Of a stretch of 63,908 nt of DNA, positions 233 to 63,908 are shown piece after piece. The position numbers and the translations under genes were made by a program. The notes beneath the pieces are model-generated. The model saw only the letters and a list, made by a program, of their open reading frames with translations, had not been told where the DNA came from and searched no databases. The DNA comes from a virus (lineage: Duplodnaviria; Caudoviricetes): the IMG/VR virus record IMGVR_UViG_3300032087_005153, positions 1 through 63,908 of that record. One strand, 5' to 3'. The stretch's first letter is position 1. Every line of letters begins with the position of its first letter.

Positions 233-280
233 TGTGACAATAGGGTTATAATATTATATATGTAGTAGGCTAATGTCGCA
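233..280 (+). promoter_or_regulatory. Imperfect palindromic operator/origin-like element, copy 1
   Basis: TGTGACAATAG-(AT-rich)-AGGCTAATGTCGCA; near-identical element inverted at 57576-57622. Confidence 0.6.
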
Positions 281-304
281 CTCTCTATGTGAGAATCCTT
301 ATAT

Positions 305-10919: not shown

Positions 10920-12476
10920 ATGGAATTTAATCAACCAAGCGAAATTGTTAAAGATTTAACTTTTGGCAATGACGCTCAGAATAGCATTATGACAGGTGTT
11001 GACAAGCTTGCAAAAGCTGTTGCATCTACAATGGGAGCGTCTGGTAAGTGCGTTATTTATGAAGATGGGCTAGGAAAGCCAATAGTTACAAAAGACGGAG
11101 TGACTGTTGCTAATAGCGTGGTTCTTATGGATCCCGTCGAAAACATCGGCGCAACCCTCATAAAAGAGGCAGCTCAAAAAACAGTAAAGGAAGCGGGTGA
11201 CGGTACTACTACAGCTACCGTCCTCGCACACTCCATTTTAAAAGAATATTGGAATATTGAAAATCCAGATATTCGTAAAATAAAAGAAGACATAAATACG
11301 GCTGCTAAAAAAGTAATTAATTACTTAGAGAGTTCAGCAAAAGAAGTTAAAGCAGGCATGCTCGACCATGTGGCAACAATATCAACTAATAACGATAAAG
11401 AATTAGGTAATATTATTGCTGAAGCCTATAATACTGTTGGTAAAGATGGTGTTGTATTAATGGAAGAATCTGAAACTGATAAAACATATGTCGATACAGT
11501 TGAAGGCGTGCAATTTGACTCAGGGCTGAAGTCACAGCACTTAATTACTGATAAAGAGAAAAATAAAGCTATTTTAGAAGAGCCTCTTGTACTTATCGTA
11601 GATTCTGAAATAGAAACTATAAGAAAAATACAAAGTGTCTTAGAATACGCTATAAAGAATAAAAAAGCTATATTGATTATAGGTAATGTTTCACAACAAG
11701 TGATGTCAGCACTTATAATGAATAAAGTTAAAGGAAATATTAAGGTCAATATAATTGACCCACCTGGTTTTTCAACCATTAGACGAGACATGCTGGATGA
11801 CCTCGCACTTATTACAGGAGCTAAAGTAATAAATGAAGAACTAGGTGATGATCTTGATTTAATTGATGAAAGTTGTTTAGGTATTGCTGCAAAAGTTGTA
11901 ACAGATGAAAATAATACAGTTATTGCTACAAATACTGAAACAGATGAAATTAAAAATCGTATATTAGCAATTGAAAAGCAAATTAAGGAAGAAAAAAATC
12001 CTTATGCTTTGAAAAAGCTTGAACAGCGTAAGGCAATGCTTTCAGGGTCTGTAGGTATTATATATGTAGGTGCAGATTCTAAAATAGAGCTTAAAGAAAA
12101 GAAAGATAGGGTTGAAGATGCTATCTATGCTGTAAAAGCAGCTTTAAAAGAAGGTATTGTTCCAGGTGCAGGTATTGCGTTACATAACGCAGCTGAAAAT
12201 ATTTCAACAAACAATACGCCTGGTGGTAATGTTTTAATGAATGCTATAAAAGCACCATACAAAACAATACTAAATAATGCTGGAATTGAATATGACTCTG
12301 ATCTTAAAAAAGGCTGGGGTATAAATGTTATAACAGGTAAAAAATGTAACCTAATCAAAGATGGTATTATTGATCCTGTATTAGTTACAAAAACTGCATT
12401 AAAAAATGCAATTTCTGTAGCAACAACAATAATGTCTGCTGATTGTGTAATATCTAATGTAAGAGAGCAATCATGA
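10920..12476 (+). CDS. groEL: Chaperonin GroEL (phage-encoded)
   Basis: TKDGVTVA, AGDGTTTATVLA, EKKDRVEDA, EGIVPGAG, GIIDP motifs; no C-terminal GGM tail. Confidence 0.97.
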   Translation: MEFNQPSEIVKDLTFGNDAQNSIMTGVDKLAKAVASTMGASGKCVIYEDGLGKPIVTKDGVTVANSVVLMDPVENIGATLIKEAAQKTVKEAGDGTTTATVLAHSILKEYWNIENPDIRKIKEDINTAAKKVINYLESSAKEVKAGMLDHVATISTNNDKELGNIIAEAYNTVGKDGVVLMEESETDKTYVDTVEGVQFDSGLKSQHLITDKEKNKAILEEPLVLIVDSEIETIRKIQSVLEYAIKNKKAILIIGNVSQQVMSALIMNKVKGNIKVNIIDPPGFSTIRRDMLDDLALITGAKVINEELGDDLDLIDESCLGIAAKVVTDENNTVIATNTETDEIKNRILAIEKQIKEEKNPYALKKLEQRKAMLSGSVGIIYVGADSKIELKEKKDRVEDAIYAVKAALKEGIVPGAGIALHNAAENISTNNTPGGNVLMNAIKAPYKTILNNAGIEYDSDLKKGWGINVITGKKCNLIKDGIIDPVLVTKTALKNAISVATTIMSADCVISNVREQS

Positions 12477-38000: not shown

Positions 38001-41000
38001 ATGTTCGAATTAGACGGAAACCAATATACGTTAGAACAAGTTCAAGCTGCGGCTTATAAGTCGGGTATGATGTTCGATGATTATGTCCAAAAATATAAAT
38101 TTAAAGAATTGGGAAAGACAACTCCCACATCACCGGGTGCGGATGTGGAGGAAACTGCAGCACCCGAGTTGACCGTTACGGAATCACCATCGGTAGATAT
38201 TTCTTTGGAATCACCTCAAACAGGAACAACTGATTCTACATTAATAACACCTCCTCGCAAAAAAACTCCATCTGAATTAAGGATAGATGCTACAAGGAAG
38301 TCAATGGCAATGGCTAATCCTATAGCTAGTATTATGCCTGACTTTATGATACCCGTATTAGCCGATTGGACAGCTATGACAACCGAATTAGGGGCAGGGG
38401 TTGTAGATACTGCTGAAATATTATATGAATTAGGATTGTCTGGAATAAGTAATGAAACTTTTGATAGAATATCTCGGGAACAAAGAATAGACATGTCAGA
38501 GGTTTATGAGGGAGTTGATGCTCTTAGAAATATTCGAGAAAAAAAATATGATGAGCAAGGAAATGAATTAGACGCTATAGGCTTATGGCAAGCCGGTAGA
38601 AAAAGTGAATCAGCCCAACAATTTATTAGTGAAGCAATAGGTTCTTTGCCTTCTACGGTTTTATCATATATAATACCCGGTGGTGGTTCAGCTATAATAG
38701 GTATTGGAACATTTGGATCAGAATTTGAAAGAAATTTAAAAGAAAGACCAGAAGAAACTGGAATGGCAATGTTGAAAAATGCTTTTATAAAAGGTAGTGC
38801 TGAAGCTGTATTTGAATTGCTTGGTGGTAAAACTTTTAAAACATTAACAAAGGCTGCTTCAAAAGGAATGACAGAAAAAGCTGTTAAAGAAATGACACGC
38901 ACTGGAATTCCTTATGCTCTTCGCAAAATATTAGGAATAACCGGGCAAGCGGCAATAGAGGCTGGCACAGAAGCATTGACAGGGGTTACACAATTAGCAG
39001 CTGATGAAATGTTTTTTGACGACGAAATAGAAGCTGCACAATATTGGCGAACAATTATTCATAGCGGAGTAGTTGGAGGATTAATGGGTGGTGGTATTAC
39101 GGCTGGAACGGTTGGTACTCAAGTAGCATTAACTGGTGACAGAAAAAAAGCAGCAATGGCTATAATTGCACCTAAAGAATGGAGAGCTGAACAAAAAGAA
39201 ATTAGTAGAAATATTGATCGTGCAGCAAGAGACTATCAAAACGCGCCTGATAATAAAAAAGCATATTTTAAAAATAAAATAGAAGTATTAGAACAACGTT
39301 TAAATGGTAGAGCAGAAAGGTTAGCTAAAGTTTGGGATGGTTTAACTAGAGCAGAAAAAATAGAATATGCAAGATTAGTAGATGAAACTAATTCTCAATT
39401 AGATATTATAGGTAATGCTAAATATACTAATCAAGCCCAAAAAGAAGCACAAATACTTTTAGACGGTGCTTATTCTGAAATGCAGGCCATATTAGGTAAA
39501 GATAATATAAATATAGAAGATGAGCAAGCTCTTTCAAGAATAATTAAAAGCGGAGTTAGTATAGCAGAAGCAGTTGGAGTTGCTAAAAAAGTTTTAAAAA
39601 ACATAAATATACAAAATATTTCTAATGAAGTATTTCAGCAAGTATCAAAAGCGGTAACTGGTAAAAAAAGTGCATCCGACGCTATATTTTTTGATGGAAA
39701 TAATATATTTATAAATAAAGATATTTCAGCAGCTACAGAACAAACAAATGTATTAGGCCACGAACTATTACATTATGTCATGGCTAAACGGTTTAATGTT
39801 AGCGATGAATCTTTAGGTCCACTAGTAAACAGCTTTAAAGATTATTTAAAACAAACTCAGCCAGAAATACTAGAAAGAATAGAGCAAAGACTTGAAAAAG
39901 CTTATGAAGGTGAAGCGCCTTTAGAAGAATATTTAAATCTTTTTTCAGATATTATAGCTAGAGAAAAAATAATAGTTGATGAAAGTATTACTGATAAAAT
40001 AAAAAATTCAGCAACTCGTCTTTTAAATAGTTTTGGATTTGGTTCGGTTAAATTAGAAACAGGGAAAGATGTTTTTGATTTTTTAAGAAATTATACTAAA
40101 AATGTTAATAATCTAAAGTTTAAACAGCTTGGTATTGATATTACATCTGATAAAATAGGAAAAGCTATTCAAAAAGATGTTAGAGAATCAAAGTCGGTAG
40201 CTTCAGAAAAAGTACAGGAAATATACGAAGCGCAAGGGGCGGCTAATGCTATGGATATTATAGATGAGTTTAGGCCTATAACAAATAAAATAGTAAACAG
40301 ATATAAAGATGTTCCTGGATTTGAATTTCAATTATTAAGAGATGAAATAGAAACTGGTAAGCGGGGTATACTTGATATGATCATGAGCTACACACCTGAA
40401 AAAGCTAAAGGTGCACCACTAGCTGGATTTATAAATAAATTTTTACCAGCAAGAGCTATTGAAGCTGCAAACCGTATATTAAATACAGAATTTACATTAG
40501 ATGTAACCGAAGCTAAGGGAATAACAGATACTGCTACTGAAGAAACTATAGAAGCTGCTGATGAAGCCAAAATAGCTGATGAAATAAAAAGCTTGCGAAA
40601 AGAAATTGGACTTCCTGAAGAGCTTGTAAATGCCGTTAAAAACGCTGTAATAAAAACATTTGGGACTAAACTTCCAAATCCACAAGATCCTAAGTTTAGA
40701 TTAGAATTACAAAGAAGATTTAGAATTGAGCTTAAAAAGCCATTAGCTAAGTTTGTTGGTAAGCAAGCTGACTATGAATCTTTTTTACGTAATAATTTTC
40801 AGTCTATATATAATAAATTACCCCAGTCTTTAATTAATAGAAGATTTAAAGATTTTCAGGAGCCGGTACTTGATAAGAATGGTAAGCATGTAAGAGAAAA
40901 AACCGCTGAAGGTAATAAAGTATATACTAAAAAGAAAATTACTCCAGCAGAATGGGTTAAATACTTTTTAGGTACAGATGTTGGAAGATCAACTCAAGGC

Positions 41001-44000
41001 ACTAGAAAAACAGCAATAGTTGAAGCAGTTGCAGAAGAAATTGCATTTGATGCTACAATGGAAATTTTGCAAAGTCCTGATGTAATAAATAAATATCAAG
41101 ACATAGCTGGTATAACAGGTGAAGTATTACCTGAAAACTTTAAAGCTATTATAGCTAAACAAATAGATAGAGCTGAAGACTTTAAATTTTCTAAAAGTTT
41201 GCCCAATATAGCTAAAGAAGAATATAATTTAGAACAACAAGAATTAGCTAAGATACTAGATAAAAATAATTTAAATAGTTTATCTAATAAATATTCTTTA
41301 TTATCTGATAATATAATTTATGAAGCAGATCCTGCTAATATTAGATTTAGTTTAACAACTAAAGCAGATGGCAAATGGACGGCAGATCAATTAAACCCGC
41401 TTGATGAGAGCAGAGGAATATATAAATTTAAAGTAGGTGAAATAGATTATGAAATAAACGCATTTAAAGATCCTTTAAATTATAATTACGACATATTTGA
41501 GCAAACAGAAGGCATTGAAGATGGAGCCATTAATAATGATCCAAAATCATGGGGTATGACTTTTGCGTCCGCAACTACGCAAAGGGTTAATATAACAGGA
41601 TATGCATTAAAAGGCCTTACTAATCAGTTTAAAGTATTGGGGACTGTAGCTAATGCTACTATAGATTTAATTAAAAAAGAAAAATTAAATTCTATAACAT
41701 TTACTGCTAAAGAAGAAAGTAGAAAAAGATTATATAGATCTTTAAATCAAAAGTTTGCTAATGAATTAGGATGGAAAACATATGATTATCAAGCCACCGT
41801 ACCAGATGGTTCAGAAACAATATTTATAGCTTATAACCCTAAAGCTTTTAATGTTGAGCCACAAATTACAACACCTCCCCCAATAAGATTTTCAAATTCA
41901 AATTCAAAATTTAATGTTACTGCCAAAAAATTATTAACTCCTCAGGGATGGGCGGAATGGAGTAATGCTAATTATGAAGGGGCAAAGGTTTTACAAGATA
42001 AAATTGGTAATATTAAAACTAAATTAGGATCTCAAAGACCATCTTATATAATAAGTGAAAAAAGAATTAAAGGCTTTGATAAATTAACAAATAAAGAAAA
42101 ACAAATATTAAGAGAAAAAATAAATAACCTTAAAGAATCAATAATAGCTTATGAAGCAAAAACTGATTTTAATATATTAAAGCCCAAAGAGTCATTTGGA
42201 AATCCAGCTAAAAAATTCGGGCGTAATGCTACGGAAATTTTTAATAATATAAAAAACGGCAATATATTTAAATTACAAAATACATATTCAAGAATATATG
42301 ATAATATGTGGGAAAAATATTATGATATATTAGAAGAAGACTCTAATATGTTTGATTTTCTTGAATCAACTTTGCAAACTTCTAATGATGATGTTTCTCA
42401 TTGGCATAGATTAGGCGCTACATTTTTAGGTTTTGATCCTACTGCTTTAGAAGATTTTTTAACAGATAAAAATGGAAATAAAATATTAAAAACTATTTAT
42501 ACAAAACAAGGCAAAAAACAAATTCCAATAGTAAGAACTTTTGAATATGAGCATGCTGTACAAAATCATATTCAATGGAAAAGAGTATTAGATGCCGCTA
42601 AGCGCTTTGCTAAAAATAAAAATAAAAAAGGTTTTTTAGATTATCTTAAAAAGTCTAAAGAAAATTATGTTTTAATAGCAATGTCTATTACTGACTCCAA
42701 AAAAATTAATGAAGCAGGCTATGCCCATGTAATGCCAAAAAATTGGAAAAAATGGGTTGATAGGTATATTGCTTCTAATATTGATTTAAATAAAATAGTA
42801 TATATAAATTATTCAAATAATAATGCCACTATTGATGGTAATATTGCTTCTAATTTTGTAACAAGAGAATCTAAATCATTAAATAGAGATTTTAATAAAA
42901 TATTAGAGCAGTCAACAGGTATAGATTGGAAAACACGTTTTTCACCTGTTCAAGCTCGTATAATGGGTAAAGGTAAAGGTAAAAAGTTTTTTATACCTTA
43001 TTCTGCCGATGATTTTGTTGGATTATTATACACAACTTTAGCTGATAAAAAAGTTGGTGAACAGCAAATGGAATGGTATAAAGAAAACTTACTTAGACCA
43101 TTTTCTCGCGGTATTCAACAATATGAAGCTGCAAAACAAAAAGCTTTACGCGAATGGCAAATCCTTAAAAAAGAAGCTAAAAAAGATGTGCCTGGTGGTT
43201 TGGATAAAAAGAATGCTACTGGACTTACTAATCAAGATGCTGTTAGGTTATATATATGGAGAACACAAGGTATGGAAATACCAGGTGTAAAAGGCGGTGC
43301 AGCATTTGTAAATGAAAATTTAAAAATAGTTAGAAAAAATCCTGAACTAAAAGCATTTGCCGAAAGACTAATGGCTTTAAACCCAGAAGGTTATCCAGAG
43401 CCGGCTACGAATTGGGATTCAGGTGACATTACTACAGACATTGTATCATATATAAACAATGTTAAACGTAGTGAATTTTTAACTGAATGGAAAGAAAATG
43501 TTGATGAAATATTTTCTGATCAAAACAAAGAAAAGCTAAGAGCTTTATATGGAGATAATTATATTGAAGCATTAGAAGATATACTTTATAGAATGCGTAC
43601 GGGTACAAACCGTAAGTTTGGTATAAGTAAAGTTGAAAGACAATTTATGGATTGGACTAATAATTCTGTTGGTGCAATAATGTTCTTTAATGCTAGATCT
43701 GCAGTACTTCAAACATTATCGGCTGTTAACTTTATAAACTTTACAGATAATAATCCAATCAATGCTGGTGTTGCATTTTTCAATCAAAAACAATATTGGA
43801 ATGATTTTTCTGAATTATTTAATTCTGACTTTTTAAAGCAAAGAAGATCTGGATTACAAACCGATGTTAACGCTGATGAAATTGCTAGAGCGGCTAAAGG
43901 CGCTAAAAATACAGCAAGGGCAGTATTAAGTGCTTTATTAAAATTTGGATTTACACCAACGCAAATAGCTGATTCATTTGCAATTGCATCTGGTGGAGCA

Positions 44001-44909
44001 ACATTCTATCGCAATAGAATAAAAACATATTTAAAAGAAGGGATGTCAGAACAAGATGCTAAAGCTAAAGCATTTACTGATTTTCAAGAAATTGCAGAAG
44101 AAACACAGCAGTCTGCACGACCTGATCGTATATCATTACAACAAGCAAGCTCACTAGGACGTCTTATATTAGCTTTTGGTAACACACCTATGCAATATGC
44201 CCGCTTAACTAAAAAAGCCACATTAGATTTAATTAATGGGCGCGGAGATTGGAAGACAAATATGAGTAAGATTATGTATTATAGTGTAATACAGAATATT
44301 ATATTCTCTGCTTTACAGCAAGGATTATTTGCTTTATTATTTGATGATGAAGATGATGATAAACAAAAATCAAGATTATTTAGAATAGGTAATAGTAGTT
44401 TAGATACTTTATTACGCGGGGTTGGTGTTTACGGGGCAGCGGCGGCTACTTTAAAAAATATGGTCCTTGAAATTATAGATCAACAAAAATCTGGTAGACC
44501 TGATTATAGTAAAATAGCTATTGAAGCAACAGCAATATCACCTCCGATAAATTCTAAATTAAGAAAACTTGAATCTGCCGGTAAAACTTTTACGTATAAG
44601 CAATCAAAAGAAAAAGTATTTACTGAAGGATTTAGTTTAGAAAATCCTGCATTTTTAGCCGGTGGTAAAGTTATATCAGCTTTAACAAATTTACCTGCTG
44701 ATCGTGTTGTACAAAAAGCAGATCATATTTATACAGCAATGCAACCTGAAACAGAATTATGGCAATCAATTGCATTATCACTCGGGTGGAGTGAATGGGA
44801 TCTTAATATGATTGAAAACAAAACTCCTCAAAAAAATTTAACTACAAAGCAGTTACAAAATTTAATGAAAAGAAATAACAATCTTAAAAAATTAATGAAA
44901 AGGAAATGA
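38001..44909 (+). CDS. Giant polyvalent ejection protein with zincin and sigma-region-2-like domains
   Basis: 2302 aa; Gly-rich hydrophobic segments, HELLH at 39759-39773, sigma-like segment about 40263-40480. Confidence 0.65.
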   Translation: MFELDGNQYTLEQVQAAAYKSGMMFDDYVQKYKFKELGKTTPTSPGADVEETAAPELTVTESPSVDISLESPQTGTTDSTLITPPRKKTPSELRIDATRKSMAMANPIASIMPDFMIPVLADWTAMTTELGAGVVDTAEILYELGLSGISNETFDRISREQRIDMSEVYEGVDALRNIREKKYDEQGNELDAIGLWQAGRKSESAQQFISEAIGSLPSTVLSYIIPGGGSAIIGIGTFGSEFERNLKERPEETGMAMLKNAFIKGSAEAVFELLGGKTFKTLTKAASKGMTEKAVKEMTRTGIPYALRKILGITGQAAIEAGTEALTGVTQLAADEMFFDDEIEAAQYWRTIIHSGVVGGLMGGGITAGTVGTQVALTGDRKKAAMAIIAPKEWRAEQKEISRNIDRAARDYQNAPDNKKAYFKNKIEVLEQRLNGRAERLAKVWDGLTRAEKIEYARLVDETNSQLDIIGNAKYTNQAQKEAQILLDGAYSEMQAILGKDNINIEDEQALSRIIKSGVSIAEAVGVAKKVLKNINIQNISNEVFQQVSKAVTGKKSASDAIFFDGNNIFINKDISAATEQTNVLGHELLHYVMAKRFNVSDESLGPLVNSFKDYLKQTQPEILERIEQRLEKAYEGEAPLEEYLNLFSDIIAREKIIVDESITDKIKNSATRLLNSFGFGSVKLETGKDVFDFLRNYTKNVNNLKFKQLGIDITSDKIGKAIQKDVRESKSVASEKVQEIYEAQGAANAMDIIDEFRPITNKIVNRYKDVPGFEFQLLRDEIETGKRGILDMIMSYTPEKAKGAPLAGFINKFLPARAIEAANRILNTEFTLDVTEAKGITDTATEETIEAADEAKIADEIKSLRKEIGLPEELVNAVKNAVIKTFGTKLPNPQDPKFRLELQRRFRIELKKPLAKFVGKQADYESFLRNNFQSIYNKLPQSLINRRFKDFQEPVLDKNGKHVREKTAEGNKVYTKKKITPAEWVKYFLGTDVGRSTQGTRKTAIVEAVAEEIAFDATMEILQSPDVINKYQDIAGITGEVLPENFKAIIAKQIDRAEDFKFSKSLPNIAKEEYNLEQQELAKILDKNNLNSLSNKYSLLSDNIIYEADPANIRFSLTTKADGKWTADQLNPLDESRGIYKFKVGEIDYEINAFKDPLNYNYDIFEQTEGIEDGAINNDPKSWGMTFASATTQRVNITGYALKGLTNQFKVLGTVANATIDLIKKEKLNSITFTAKEESRKRLYRSLNQKFANELGWKTYDYQATVPDGSETIFIAYNPKAFNVEPQITTPPPIRFSNSNSKFNVTAKKLLTPQGWAEWSNANYEGAKVLQDKIGNIKTKLGSQRPSYIISEKRIKGFDKLTNKEKQILREKINNLKESIIAYEAKTDFNILKPKESFGNPAKKFGRNATEIFNNIKNGNIFKLQNTYSRIYDNMWEKYYDILEEDSNMFDFLESTLQTSNDDVSHWHRLGATFLGFDPTALEDFLTDKNGNKILKTIYTKQGKKQIPIVRTFEYEHAVQNHIQWKRVLDAAKRFAKNKNKKGFLDYLKKSKENYVLIAMSITDSKKINEAGYAHVMPKNWKKWVDRYIASNIDLNKIVYINYSNNNATIDGNIASNFVTRESKSLNRDFNKILEQSTGIDWKTRFSPVQARIMGKGKGKKFFIPYSADDFVGLLYTTLADKKVGEQQMEWYKENLLRPFSRGIQQYEAAKQKALREWQILKKEAKKDVPGGLDKKNATGLTNQDAVRLYIWRTQGMEIPGVKGGAAFVNENLKIVRKNPELKAFAERLMALNPEGYPEPATNWDSGDITTDIVSYINNVKRSEFLTEWKENVDEIFSDQNKEKLRALYGDNYIEALEDILYRMRTGTNRKFGISKVERQFMDWTNNSVGAIMFFNARSAVLQTLSAVNFINFTDNNPINAGVAFFNQKQYWNDFSELFNSDFLKQRRSGLQTDVNADEIARAAKGAKNTARAVLSALLKFGFTPTQIADSFAIASGGATFYRNRIKTYLKEGMSEQDAKAKAFTDFQEIAEETQQSARPDRISLQQASSLGRLILAFGNTPMQYARLTKKATLDLINGRGDWKTNMSKIMYYSVIQNIIFSALQQGLFALLFDDEDDDKQKSRLFRIGNSSLDTLLRGVGVYGAAAATLKNMVLEIIDQQKSGRPDYSKIAIEATAISPPINSKLRKLESAGKTFTYKQSKEKVFTEGFSLENPAFLAGGKVISALTNLPADRVVQKADHIYTAMQPETELWQSIALSLGWSEWDLNMIENKTPQKNLTTKQLQNLMKRNNNLKKLMKRK

Positions 44910-60524: not shown

Positions 60525-60558
60525 TTATTATCCGTTATCCTCCGTGTTAGGGTTGTAA
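60525..60558 (-). promoter_or_regulatory. Early promoter-like motif
   Basis: + strand TTATTATCC-N8-CCGTGTT-N4-TTGTAA. Confidence 0.75.
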
Positions 60559-61231: not shown

Positions 61232-61265
61232 ATATTATCCGTGTTTGTTCGTGTTAGGTTTGTAA
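61232..61265 (-). promoter_or_regulatory. Early promoter-like motif
   Basis: + strand ATATTATCC-N8-TCGTGTT-N4-TTGTAA. Confidence 0.8.
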
Positions 61266-62875: not shown

Positions 62876-62909
62876 ATATTATCCGATTATGATCGTGTTA
62901 AGCTTGTAA
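62876..62909 (-). promoter_or_regulatory. Early promoter-like motif
   Basis: + strand ATATTATCC-N8-TCGTGTT-N4-TTGTAA; - strand ATG at 62851. Confidence 0.8.
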
Positions 62910-63470
62910 TCTGGTATGGGCATAGTAGACTTTAGTTGTGTCAATATGATTCCAGTGGGCATTTCTTGCAAAGGTTACTCTTGTTACACCTTTAGAACCA
63001 AGGCCATAGAAAGTCATTTGCTTTTCAGTTTGTTTGGCTTGTCTATCCAGTTTCTTTTGTAATTTAGATTTCATAGTGTGTGTGTTTTATTTGTTAATGT
63101 TTTTAGTTAGAATGGTATAATACGTTGCTTGTGTGTATGTTAAAAGCTTTTTTAGTTAAAGTTATTAATCATTTTATCAATTTTGCTTAATATTCCCCAG
63201 CACTGATCGATGGCTGTTGGATCGTTGTCTGAATTAGCATAGTCTTGTAATGCTTGAGTCAGTATAGTTAGTTCAGTTTGTGTGAATTTCATATTATTAT
63301 CTATTTACTTCTCTTTGGTATTGTAATTCTTTTAAGTATATTTTATTTAGCTTGTCCAGTACATGCTCTATTGAGTCTATGTAGTTATAGTGATTTTTGT
63401 CAGATACTTTGTAAATTATTTTTTTAAGTTGTTTAGTAGTAGACATATTATTTAATTTTTAAATTCTTAT

Positions 63471-63504
63471 ATATTATCCAGTTGAGGTCGTGTTTACTTT
63501 GTAA
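63471..63504 (-). promoter_or_regulatory. Early promoter-like motif
   Basis: + strand ATATTATCC-N8-TCGTGTT-N4-TTGTAA; - strand ATG at 63446. Confidence 0.8.
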
Positions 63505-63727
63505 AATCATAGATTCTTAAATACCATTCTTCTATACTTTCATTATATTTCATTTCACAATTTTCTTTTACAATTACGTTTTCCATTATTACTTTTTCAT
63601 TAAAGATTTGTTCTTTAGTTCCATAGTAATCTGTTTTAAAAATCTTATTTAATTCTTCTTCTACTAGTTTATTTAATATTAATTTGTTTTGTTTACTTAC
63701 TTCTTTTAAATGTGTTTGTAAATTCAT
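63494..63727 (-). CDS. First early hypothetical protein
   Basis: Starts 28 nt downstream of promoter motif. Confidence 0.65.
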   Translation of the reverse strand: MNLQTHLKEVSKQNKLILNKLVEEELNKIFKTDYYGTKEQIFNEKVIMENVIVKENCEMKYNESIEEWYLRIYDFTK

Positions 63728-63754: not shown

Positions 63755-63788
63755 ATATTATCCATTTGTGTTCGTGTTTAGTTTGTAA
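63755..63788 (-). promoter_or_regulatory. Early promoter-like motif
   Basis: + strand ATATTATCC-N8-TCGTGTT-N4-TTGTAA. Confidence 0.8.
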
Positions 63789-63817: not shown

Positions 63818-63908
63818 TGATCGGAGCCTAACTATATTATCCAAAATAGTTCGTGTTTACATTGTAAAATACCGAGCACAAAAAGTCAAAAGTTATGTAC
63901 TTGATACT
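63818..63908. repeat. 91-bp direct repeat, right copy
   Basis: Identical to 1-91. Confidence 0.95.

Follow-up and report, generated by a model that had tools for sequence, protein, structure and literature searches.

The window examined here, the whole 63,908-bp stretch of a virus record from IMG/VR (IMGVR_UViG_3300032087_005153; Caudoviricetes), is a full virus record with a G+C content of 32% and a 91-bp direct terminal repeat. Late and structural genes occupy the plus strand from position 1 to ~45.9 kb, in the order terminase, portal, capsid proteins, a 3073-amino-acid (aa) protein, three small open reading frames (ORFs), and a 2302-aa ORF, and early and replication genes occupy the minus strand from 63.9 down to 46 kb. 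Our subject is a 329-aa interval of this last, giant ORF: positions 40197 to 41183 (+) translate stop-free into its residues 733 to 1061, exactly as placed by a first-pass annotation that was made by eye from the sequence. That annotation had likened the string FRPITNKIVNRY...PARAI, which indeed starts at residue 757, to region 2 of sigma70, and had proposed that the interval is packaged and injected to redirect the host core RNA polymerase to six noncanonical early promoters. We find that the interval consists of a sigma-like domain A, an acidic linker, and a basic domain B; that domain A is very probably a true and highly divergent homologue of domain 2 of the sigma70 family, as judged from sequence profiles and a predicted structure; and that the overall interpretation built on it is partly supported.

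Domain A and the sigma70 family

AlphaFold2, run on residues 726 to 1080 with a 38-sequence alignment, yielded a model with a mean predicted local distance difference test (pLDDT) score of 87.7, in which two well-defined domains (model residues 5 to 110 and 134 to 341) are separated by a disordered stretch; the blocks of domain A reach pLDDT values of 93 to 97. When the model was compared by VIA-align with 48,161 PDB representatives, the best 25 rows (Z scores of 7.7 to 5.5, root mean square deviations of 2.7 to 4.5, 74 to 95 aligned residues) all aligned within model residues 3 to 118. Sixteen of these 25 are titled as sigma factors: SigB, ShbA, sigma28, SigE, pro-sigmaK, sigma32, SigA domain 2, and RpoS, and further sigma70, SigR, sigmaS, SigI6, sigmaE region 2, RpoE, and SigC. 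Seven more we take to be sigma chains as well, namely, AlgU, BldN, CnrH, WhiG, T4 gp55 (presumably chain F of 7d7d; Z score of 6.3), and two F chains of open complexes. The remaining two are not assignable from their titles (9n9q_C and the epitope scaffold 3les_A), and the range over which 3les_A aligns, 105 to 271, is the same as that of the sigmaA domain-2 entry 3ugo_A. Proteins with the same helical arrangement, such as TFIIB, Brf, and the cyclins, rank below the sigma rows in this list. By the AlphaFold2 model and these VIA-align rows, domain A is predicted to have the domain 2 fold of a sigma70-family factor. The first-pass annotation had proposed AlphaFold and Foldseek as a check; the fold resemblance stood, in that the best VIA-align rows are sigma domain 2, and the Foldseek part did not, since the model of domains A and B returned nothing from PDB at an E value of ≤1e-3. 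The highest Foldseek probabilities (0.2 to 0.44) nonetheless fell to sigma rows, with E values of 0.36 to 1.3.

A sigma signal in the sequence emerged after the alignment was cut to domain A alone. This alignment (A3) holds 12 sequences that are 44 to 59% identical to the window, and its profile, searched against PDB at an E value of ≤10, matched 13 distinct sequences, 12 of them sigma factors and the thirteenth NifD (E values of 0.013 for the N-terminal domain of SigE, 0.036 for sigmaK, 0.1 to 0.48 for RpoS, and 0.3 to 1.5 for FliA). All of the alignments lie in one register, from region 2.1 through region 2.3, which places a nearly invariant D-E-I-E-T-G-K-R-G of domain A (D-x-I-E-x-G-x-x-G) on the sigma motif D-L-I-x-x-G-x-x-G-L, the P of Y-x-P on the P of the sigma F-D/N-P, and the conserved Y of L-A-A-Y-I-N-K on the region 2.3 tyrosine of S-T-Y-A. 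In what we take to be the numbering of sigma70, the aligned positions are D403, G408, and Y430, and the paired tryptophans of region 2.3 (433/434, on the same assumption) are replaced in domain A by K and by Y/F. The D-x-I-E-x-G-x-x-G signature and the region 2.3-like tyrosine are kept at 90 to 100% in relatives that are 44 to 59% identical overall. Domain A is acidic, with an isoelectric point (pI) of 4.9.

Three further comparisons bear on the same family. Scanning the 12 members of A3 against NCBIfam at an E value of ≤1 gave 12 families, 11 of which are sigma factors (SigK, SigI, RpoH, FliA/WhiG, RpoS, SigH, and sigma-70; best E value, 0.0074). Alignment by hhalign of 223 domain-A sequences with the family of the phage's own free-standing sigma factor fell into the same register, with P of 0.097 over 44 columns. 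Finally, 26 of the 30 named matches in a feature search of the ESM Atlas are Sigma70_r2 clusters (score of 0.93), with low recognition and shared-feature counts, such as a remote relative or chance would give.

A number of results weigh against this assignment. No sigma family appeared in scans of the window's own sequence against Pfam, PHROGs, and NCBIfam, and the only Pfam and PHROG signals obtained for the window's own protein are weak ones, to DUF6934 and Peptidase_M78. The Pfam model Sigma70_r2 (PF04542) gave the window's own sequences no match above its gathering score, nor any at an E value of ≤1; it was matched by just 2 of 12 relatives (E value of 0.16), and a six-frame search of the genome with it, at an E value of ≤10, found the free-standing sigma factor alone and not domain A. 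From a broad alignment (A1; 38 mostly long sequences), the profile search of PDB yielded no sigma factor, the sole match being a dipeptidase at an E value of 0.12, and a Pfam scan of its members showed no sigma family among the 25 listed of 34 families. Each single sequence score is thus below threshold (best E values, 0.0074 to 0.013), and Z scores below 8 are common for helical models.

Such results would be compatible with domain A being a generic four- or five-helix bundle and its weak sequence matches being noise: every sequence score is individually insignificant, Pfam misses the domain, helical models easily reach Z scores of 7 to 8, and one third of shuffled proteins get ten same-family matches in the ESM Atlas. 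Chance resemblance is nevertheless very improbable, because a single family supplies 12 of the 13 PDB sequences, 11 of the 12 NCBIfam families, essentially all of the best 25 of 48,161 structures, and 26 of the 30 Atlas clusters, and because the profile and hhalign alignments share one register. The structural comparison points one way, with moderate scores, and its weight lies in one family filling the list and not in the size of Z. Because four methods pick one family from thousands, in one register, sigma region 2 homology is the reading that we adopt with high confidence, and the first-pass identification of the segment holds on the strength of a predicted fold and consistent, weak sequence signals.

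Architecture, conservation, and probable packaging of the giant protein

Domain A belongs to a large family of giant proteins (features and coordinates are collected in Table 1), of which >700 long homologues were recovered and 255 IMG/VR loci were confirmed. A search of the 329-aa interval against 1.84 billion representatives recovered 469 proteins (clusters at 50% identity) at an E value of ≤1e-3, nearly all of them 1,000 to 3,400 aa long; tblastn of the window's own queries (P0001 and P0002) against 50,697 phage records returned no match, and phmmer with P0002 had no relevant match in PDB. Across 36 full-length homologues, identity per 25-aa window reaches 45 to 74% at residues 726 to 1075, against 10 to 30% across most of the protein, and because of this conservation peak we regard residues 733 to 1061 as a real evolutionary unit. 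Many of the 469 matches cover just the first ~120 to 150 residues of the query, at 44 to 65% identity, and domain A recurs in giants that otherwise differ, at 55 to 65% identity; domain A is therefore a separately mobile unit.

Two blocks, residues 726 to 1075 and residues 1626 to 2275, stand well above the rest of the giant protein in conservation. The second block, module C, is the most conserved of the family (up to 83% identity per 25-aa window); it is always C-terminal and occurs in most homologues; it is not present in the giants of cultured relatives, and it has no Pfam, PHROG, or PDB sequence match.

To describe the architecture, we searched hidden Markov models (HMMs) of five modules (N, zincin, A, B, and C) across 250 homologues. 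The commonest order, N-zincin-A-B-C, occurs in 107 of them, and 22 different module strings occur in all. Domain A is carried by 233 of the 250, and the zincin directly precedes domain A wherever both occur. The first-pass annotation had set the sigma-like segment right after a zincin domain, which agrees with the position of the HELLH motif at residue 587 and with the presence of HExxH in 36/36 aligned homologues; the sole Pfam signal of this module is a weak one to Peptidase_M78 (E value of 0.014; 15.7 bits versus a cutoff of 22). Two homologues (P0111 and P0122) hold precomputed Zeta_toxin, CPT, and AAA_33 kinase-type Pfam domains, and a BFVD relative is named UDP-N-acetylglucosamine kinase. 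As judged from such domain content, the giants swap effector-type modules.

The modules are bordered by short motifs of the general type K-F-S-K-S/T (strict form, [KQR][FY]S[KR]). The first-pass annotation had described the sigma-like segment as bracketed by RESKS and KFSKS. The KFSKS side of that claim stood, the KFSK-type sites after domain B and before module C being well conserved (Table 1); the RESKS side did not, since the site before domain A takes the strict form in only 5/36 homologues and a loose form in 21/36. Two further sites of the border type lie at residues 1296 and 1622.

Domain A is always internal to the giant ORF. The reading frame is open for 2 kb on both sides in 78 of 80 IMG/VR loci, and in the remaining two, the first upstream stop is more than 1.6 kb from domain A. 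Because it is never a separate gene, domain A must be cut out of the giant protein if it acts as a separate protein. Its position also bears on the possibility that exaptation has given the sigma2 fold a role that does not involve the polymerase, such as that of a helical adaptor in the capsid or ejection channel, a DNA-end-binding part, or a chaperone-like part for packing and refolding. This possibility accommodates a domain that is never free-standing, scores that are moderate (Z scores of <8 and E values of ≥0.007), and a block C and N module that look structural and belong to no known family. We consider it unlikely, given that 90 to 100% conservation of the D-x-I-E-x-G-x-x-G signature and of the region 2.3-like tyrosine would be surprising in a structural adaptor, as would restriction to a clade with its own sigma factor and its own promoter-like motif (see below).

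The giant protein is probably virion cargo, as suggested by synteny and GenBank product names. Its ORF sits in the late operon, downstream of a crAss-type muzzle gene, and the HMM of the N module matches the giant proteins that occupy the corresponding place in the cultured phages elemo (gp18; E value of 3.7e-29) and phi38:1 (gp101; E value of 3.5e-15), the former of which is also matched by the zincin module (E value of 3.6e-11). For PhiCrAss001, PMC10172136 states that the genes after the muzzle gene encode cargo proteins and polymerase-associated giants that were detected in virions by mass spectrometry.

Table 1. Positions of the giant ORF and its parts, of the early motif copies, and of related genes (aa, residues of the 2302-aa ORF; pTM, predicted template modeling score)
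Feature	Position	Strand	Remarks
Giant ORF, 2302 aa; modular cargo/ejection-type protein (predicted)	38001..44909	+	Order: N, zincin, sigma2-like A, B, variable middle, C
N module, aa 200-470	38598..39410	+	Family HMM match to giant "structural proteins" of cultured Flavobacteriia podophages
Putative zincin-like metallopeptidase module, aa 560-700	39678..40100	+	HELLH at aa 587-591 (39759-39773)
Border motif RESKS, aa 728-732, preceding domain A	40182..40196	+	Weakly conserved
Domain A, aa 733-837; predicted divergent sigma70-family domain 2 (regions 1.2 to 2.4)	40197..40511	+	Fold and sequence searches
Acidic linker, aa 838-858; predicted disordered	40512..40574	+	pLDDT <50 at model residues 112-133; pI 4.1
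Domain B, aa 859-1061; basic, helical with one beta-hairpin	40575..41183	+	Model pLDDT 89.4, pTM 0.83
Border motif KFSKS, aa 1062-1066, following domain B	41184..41198	+	Strict form in 31/36 homologues
Border motif RFSNS, aa 1296-1300	41886..41900	+	Strict form in 3/34 homologues, loose form in 12/34
Border motif RESKS, aa 1622-1626, preceding module C	42864..42878	+	Family consensus KFSK[ST]; strict form in 28/36
Module C, aa 1626-2275	42876..44825	+	Second highly conserved block; conservation profile
Muzzle-like tail protein, 3073 aa	26265..35486	+	Pfam crAss_MUZ_C, 37.1 bits (cutoff 27); phrog_14478 "virion structural protein," E 9.6e-139
Free-standing phage sigma factor, 243 aa	56248..56979	-	Sigma70_r2, 29.4 bits (over cutoff); Sigma70_r4, 21.3 bits (just under); phrog_351
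Motif copy 1	63835..63867	-	Inside 91-bp terminal repeat, hence duplicated at 18-50
Motif copy 2	63756..63788	-	GGATAATA ends ~30 nt before ATG of ORF 63494-63727
Motif copy 3	63472..63504	-	
Motif copy 4	62877..62909	-	
Motif copy 5	61233..61265	-	
Motif copy 6	60526..60558	-	
Giant genes of cultured relatives	elemoF gp18, 3694 aa; phi38:1 gp101, 1691 aa		Same place after muzzle-like gene; GenBank "structural protein"

Early motif, free-standing sigma factor, and a candidate injected pro-sigma

The six promoter-like early motifs reported by the first-pass annotation exist and are not of the host type. They conform to TTACAA-N4-AACACG-N9-GGATAATA(T), all lie on the minus strand between 60.5 and 63.9 kb, and are accompanied by an additional, weaker copy at 63295-63326; the motif can be abbreviated to a bipartite form, TTACAA-N19-GGATAATA, also given as TTACAA-N19-GGATAATAT. 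The GGATAATA element ends 18 to 35 nt before the ATGs of small early ORFs, a spacing that would fit a -10-type element with a short leader. The terminal repeat is exact (1-91 and 63818-63908), such that one full copy of the early motif stands at each end of the genome.

Related genomes retain the motif in altered forms. Among 31 related records, 9 have the exact AACACG form, in each case confined to a single strand, and a control pattern read backwards has 0 matches. In relatives whose domain A is ~62 to 64% identical (loci L094 to L111), the outer blocks and the 19-nt spacing are kept and the middle block is altered, to AATACG in three genomes (G012, G015, and G020; 7 to 9 copies) and to an AAATAA-like block in a fourth (G016). 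A middle block that is specific to the subclade, between a fixed TTACAA and a fixed GGATAATAT, may be the mark of a coevolving contact with a phage protein. With at most one mismatch allowed, the bipartite motif is present in 7 to 8 one-strand copies in each of G000, G001, G004, G012, G015, G016, and G020.

The genome's own sigma factor, which the first-pass annotation had quoted for comparison, is the 243-aa ORF on the minus strand (Table 1) and is the sole PF04542 match in the genome. A free sigma factor (PF04542) is found in 18 of the 30 records with domain A and in 8 of the 9 with a completeness of ≥90%; most of the records in which it was missed are fragments, and the exception, G010, begins inside the primase gene and thus is without the early region. 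In the cultured phages elemo and phi38:1, the copy number of the motif is 0, PF04542 gave nothing at an E value of ≤1, and tblastn showed no domain A. Co-occurrence of the domain and the motif, which the first-pass annotation had suggested looking for, is accordingly seen: domain A, the free sigma factor, and the motif are found together in the near-complete relatives examined and are never separate in this sample. Because the three come and go together, the pattern supports a linked system, although shared ancestry alone could produce it.

Transcription from host-type promoters may be avoided. In Bacteroidetes, the consensus of the -7 element is TAnnTTTG. In the 85-nt stretches ahead of the genes, which were called crudely, this consensus, which may not be that of the host, precedes 0/73 genes of the window versus 8 in the reverse-complement control, compared with 16/76 genes of elemoF versus 8 in the control. 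The element is thus depleted upstream of the window's genes by comparison with those stretches read on the other strand; over whole genomes there is no enrichment (46 and 52 sites versus ~43 in shuffles), and almost none of the sites are intergenic. These counts hint that the phage avoids host-type promoters. If the consensus holds, the lack of host-type promoters implies that a factor other than the sigmaA holoenzyme must start transcription. On the strand that carries the motif copies, the free sigma gene follows the nearest of them at a distance of ~3.5 kb, and because it lies downstream of the motif cluster, its product cannot act first unless it is packaged. A factor acting at time zero would therefore be needed: the motif is of a non-host type, host-type elements are lacking, and the free sigma gene is downstream of the motif cluster.

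We propose, tentatively, that this factor is an injected pro-sigma. The steps would be as follows.

(i) The 2302-aa ORF would encode a modular "polyvalent" cargo/ejection protein of a Flavobacteriia podophage, packed in the virion and expelled from it so as to enter the cell together with the DNA or before it.

(ii) The A-linker-B part, of ~330 aa, would act as the pro-sigma, possibly after cleavage at KFSK-type borders by the adjacent zincin, the module being either freed or still tethered.

(iii) Domain A would dock on the beta-prime clamp helices of the host core RNA polymerase via its region-2.2-like helix. To binding of the core polymerase, we would give slightly better than even chances.

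(iv) The region-2.3-like helix, perhaps aided by the basic domain B, would open the GGATAATAT element of the early promoters, directing the polymerase to TTACAA-N19-GGATAATAT at the genome end before any phage protein is made. That the module reads the early motif is a doubtful prediction, for which we would give rather less than even chances.

(v) The free sigma factor, as an early product, would then take over the later genes.

Packaging, release, core binding, and promoter reading are all steps that we infer, and a set of findings counts against an injected sigma factor that is promoter specific. Domain A is never a separate gene, which makes release from the giant protein conjectural; the RESKS border before it is weakly conserved; and the evidence for a place in the virion is indirect, the open-access literature searched having given no proteomic statement on the phi38:1 or elemo giants. 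The motif tracks the free sigma factor exactly as it tracks domain A, and co-occurrence cannot tell which of the two reads it; the free sigma factor could be the reader if it is made first by another route or is packaged. Domain B showed no sigma resemblance in the searches made with it. Folded alone, it gives a confident model (Table 1) and is basic (pI of 9.4; net charge of +7), and its best VIA-align row is the EMSY ENT domain (Z score of 5.1), with no sigma row; Foldseek returned nothing at an E value of ≤1e-3 and no sigma row, the ESM Atlas returned no match, and hhalign against the family of the own sigma factor gave P of 0.29 over 12 columns. A winged-helix resemblance of domain B (to DpnI, cullin WHB, and the T138 eWH; Z scores of 3.3 to 4.4) is too weak to use. 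Finally, 53 of the 233 homologues carrying domain A have no detectable domain B, and domain A can therefore work without it.

The first-pass annotation had seen no region 4 helix-turn-helix and had named a core-sequestering role as an alternative. Its observation agrees with ours as far as the methods reach: no sigma region 3 or 4 was found by Pfam, VIA-align, Foldseek, or hhalign, lists that a divergent version may escape. In the nearest rival to the injected pro-sigma, domain A is an RNA polymerase docking module without promoter specificity. Clamp-helix binding would keep all or part of the ejected giant protein attached to the polymerase in order to compete with the host sigma factor (host shutoff), to place the polymerase at the incoming end of the DNA, where transcription would help to draw in the genome, or to aim the zincin or another effector at the polymerase, and recognition of the early motif would fall to a different factor, for instance the phage's free sigma factor or one of the host. 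A docking module shares with the pro-sigma the fold and sequence evidence, and it accounts for a domain A that occurs without B and directly after a zincin, for the lack of a detectable sigma4-like part, and for the effector-type domains (Zeta_toxin and AAA_33) of homologues P0111 and P0122. It also suits a domain that keeps only part of the melting set, the positions that we take to be the region 2.3 tryptophans reading K and Y/F. It agrees, too, with the proposal in PMC5512222 that polyvalent proteins "jump-start transcription" or modify the host polymerase. Docking leaves unexplained, however, what reads a non-host-type motif at time zero in a phage with host -7 elements upstream of 0/73 genes, and the conserved tyrosine and the strongly conserved helix that follows it suggest selection on the DNA-facing side as well. 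We judge docking without promoter specificity to be only slightly less probable than the promoter-specific pro-sigma, to which we return below and which itself has rather less than even chances.

Relation to known systems and other features of the genome

Among characterized sigma70-family proteins, domain A is closest to domain 2 of SigE (N-terminal domain, 8b3z), pro-sigmaK (8vjl), RpoS, FliA/sigma28, and SigB, with which it has in common a helical fold over ~75 to 95 residues, the D/G/G signature, the region 2.3 tyrosine, and an acidic character. It differs from sigma factors in falling below every curated threshold, in being embedded in a 2302-aa ORF, and in being followed by an unassigned basic domain in which no region 3 or 4 was recognized; the layout, in which a flexible, acidic linker joins an acidic sigma2 to a basic second domain, is reminiscent of a small sigma factor only in its outline. 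Domain A adds to a known fold a new and very divergent branch, set in a new kind of architecture, and as a compact sigma2 variant of 105 aa, it is missed by current Pfam models.

Two precedents resemble parts of the proposed injected pro-sigma. SigE and SigK are made as pro-proteins and released by proteolysis, and pro-sigmaE and pro-sigmaK would offer a functional parallel only. T4 gp55, a late sigma factor with a sigma2-like domain only, reads an extended, A/T-rich -10-type element, TATAAATA, which is comparable with GGATAATAT; it is a phage sigma2 without a sigma4, as the proposed module would be. Unlike that module, gp55 is a free late protein that needs gp33 and the sliding clamp, and it is not a virion component.

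Two routes to transcription at time zero are known, namely, host-type early promoters and an injected RNA polymerase, as in N4, crassviruses, and phiKZ-like phages; the crAss-type virion RNA polymerase contains two double-psi beta-barrels. A virion polymerase was considered for the giant protein and rejected, in keeping with the first-pass statement that no polymerase motif is visible. No RNA or DNA polymerase was detected among the 21 largest ORFs scanned; the giant protein has no DxDxD-type motif, its sole D.D.D match being an acidic run at residue 2116; it gave no Pfam polymerase match; and a phmmer search of all sequences in PDB with the full-length protein returned just two unrelated matches (E values of 0.41 and 0.88), neither a polymerase, so that the hallmarks of the crAss-type enzyme (DxDxD and similarity to the phi14:2 enzyme) were not found. 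Virion polymerases of crassviruses and N4-like phages solve the same problem, early transcription before any phage protein, and their genes occupy the corresponding position in the genome, within the cargo genes that follow the muzzle or tail genes (PMC10172136). The phage described here would differ in delivering a specificity subunit and not an enzyme, and it encodes a sigma factor for the host polymerase. T4 Alt, an injected ADP-ribosyltransferase that acts on the host polymerase (PMC5512222 and PMC7824862), would be similar to the proposed module in being carried by the virion and in biasing host RNA polymerase toward phage early promoters, and dissimilar in being an enzyme that modifies the alpha subunit rather than a noncatalytic sigma mimic.

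The giant ORF as a whole fits the polyvalent proteins, found in phages and in conjugative elements, that were described by Iyer et al. (2017, PMC5512222) as giant, multidomain proteins with a zincin-like peptidase and exchangeable modules; delivery alongside the DNA, processing by that peptidase, and a jump-start of transcription are the themes proposed for them. A multidomain character with a varying set of domains (22 module strings in 250 homologues, with kinase-type entries in P0111 and P0122) is shared, as a zincin-like peptidase would be (HExxH in 36/36 homologues); LPD families of Pfam were not found in the window's own protein, and a weak LPD38 match (E value of 0.012) occurs in 1 of the 38 members of A1. 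The word "sigma" and the Greek letter have 0 occurrences in PMC5512222, and a module of the sigma type would extend the payloads of polyvalent proteins to a new kind. In the open-access full-text literature searched, no virion or ejected protein is described as having a sigma-type domain, and an injected sigma-like module that engages the host RNA polymerase is plausible and unreported there.

If the pro-sigma reading is true, a large clade of marine Flavobacteriia podophages may open infection with the injection of a sigma factor rather than of an RNA polymerase, a proposal that we advance with considerable reserve. It would constitute a cheaper third route beside host-type early promoters and virion polymerases, would confer independence from the host sigma factor from time zero, and would explain a phage that is without host-type promoters and without a polymerase of its own. 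The family is a large one, carried by phages of a major group of marine heterotrophs.

A Flavobacteriia host is likely because the large terminase matches 87 phage records, all from phages of Flavobacteriia hosts (Flavobacterium, 68; Cellulophaga, 15; Tenacibaculum, 2; and Maribacter, 1) or uncultured (1). Scans of the largest ORFs identified further functions, including a primase-helicase, a ribonucleotide reductase, a thymidylate synthase, a MazG-like protein, and GroEL. The GroEL-type chaperonin lies at 10920-12476 (+; phrog_5725, E value of 4.6e-134), and the elemo and phi38:1 phages also encode one. The occurrence of the crAss muzzle C-terminal domain in a 64-kb phage related to Flavobacterium elemo- and Cellulophaga phi38:1-type podophages suggests that the crassvirus muzzle is common to phages well beyond the Crassvirales.

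A candidate late-promoter motif, ATAATAT, stands upstream of 11 genes versus 5 in the control and is too weak to claim. Separately, an element of the form TGTGACAATAG...GGCTAATGTC is located at ~233-283 (+), upstream of the first ORF of the plus strand, and a late-promoter role or one in packaging is possible; a similar TGTGACAATAG...GGCTAATGTC pair occurs in the relative G016 (locus L104, 581-631 and 8584-8629).

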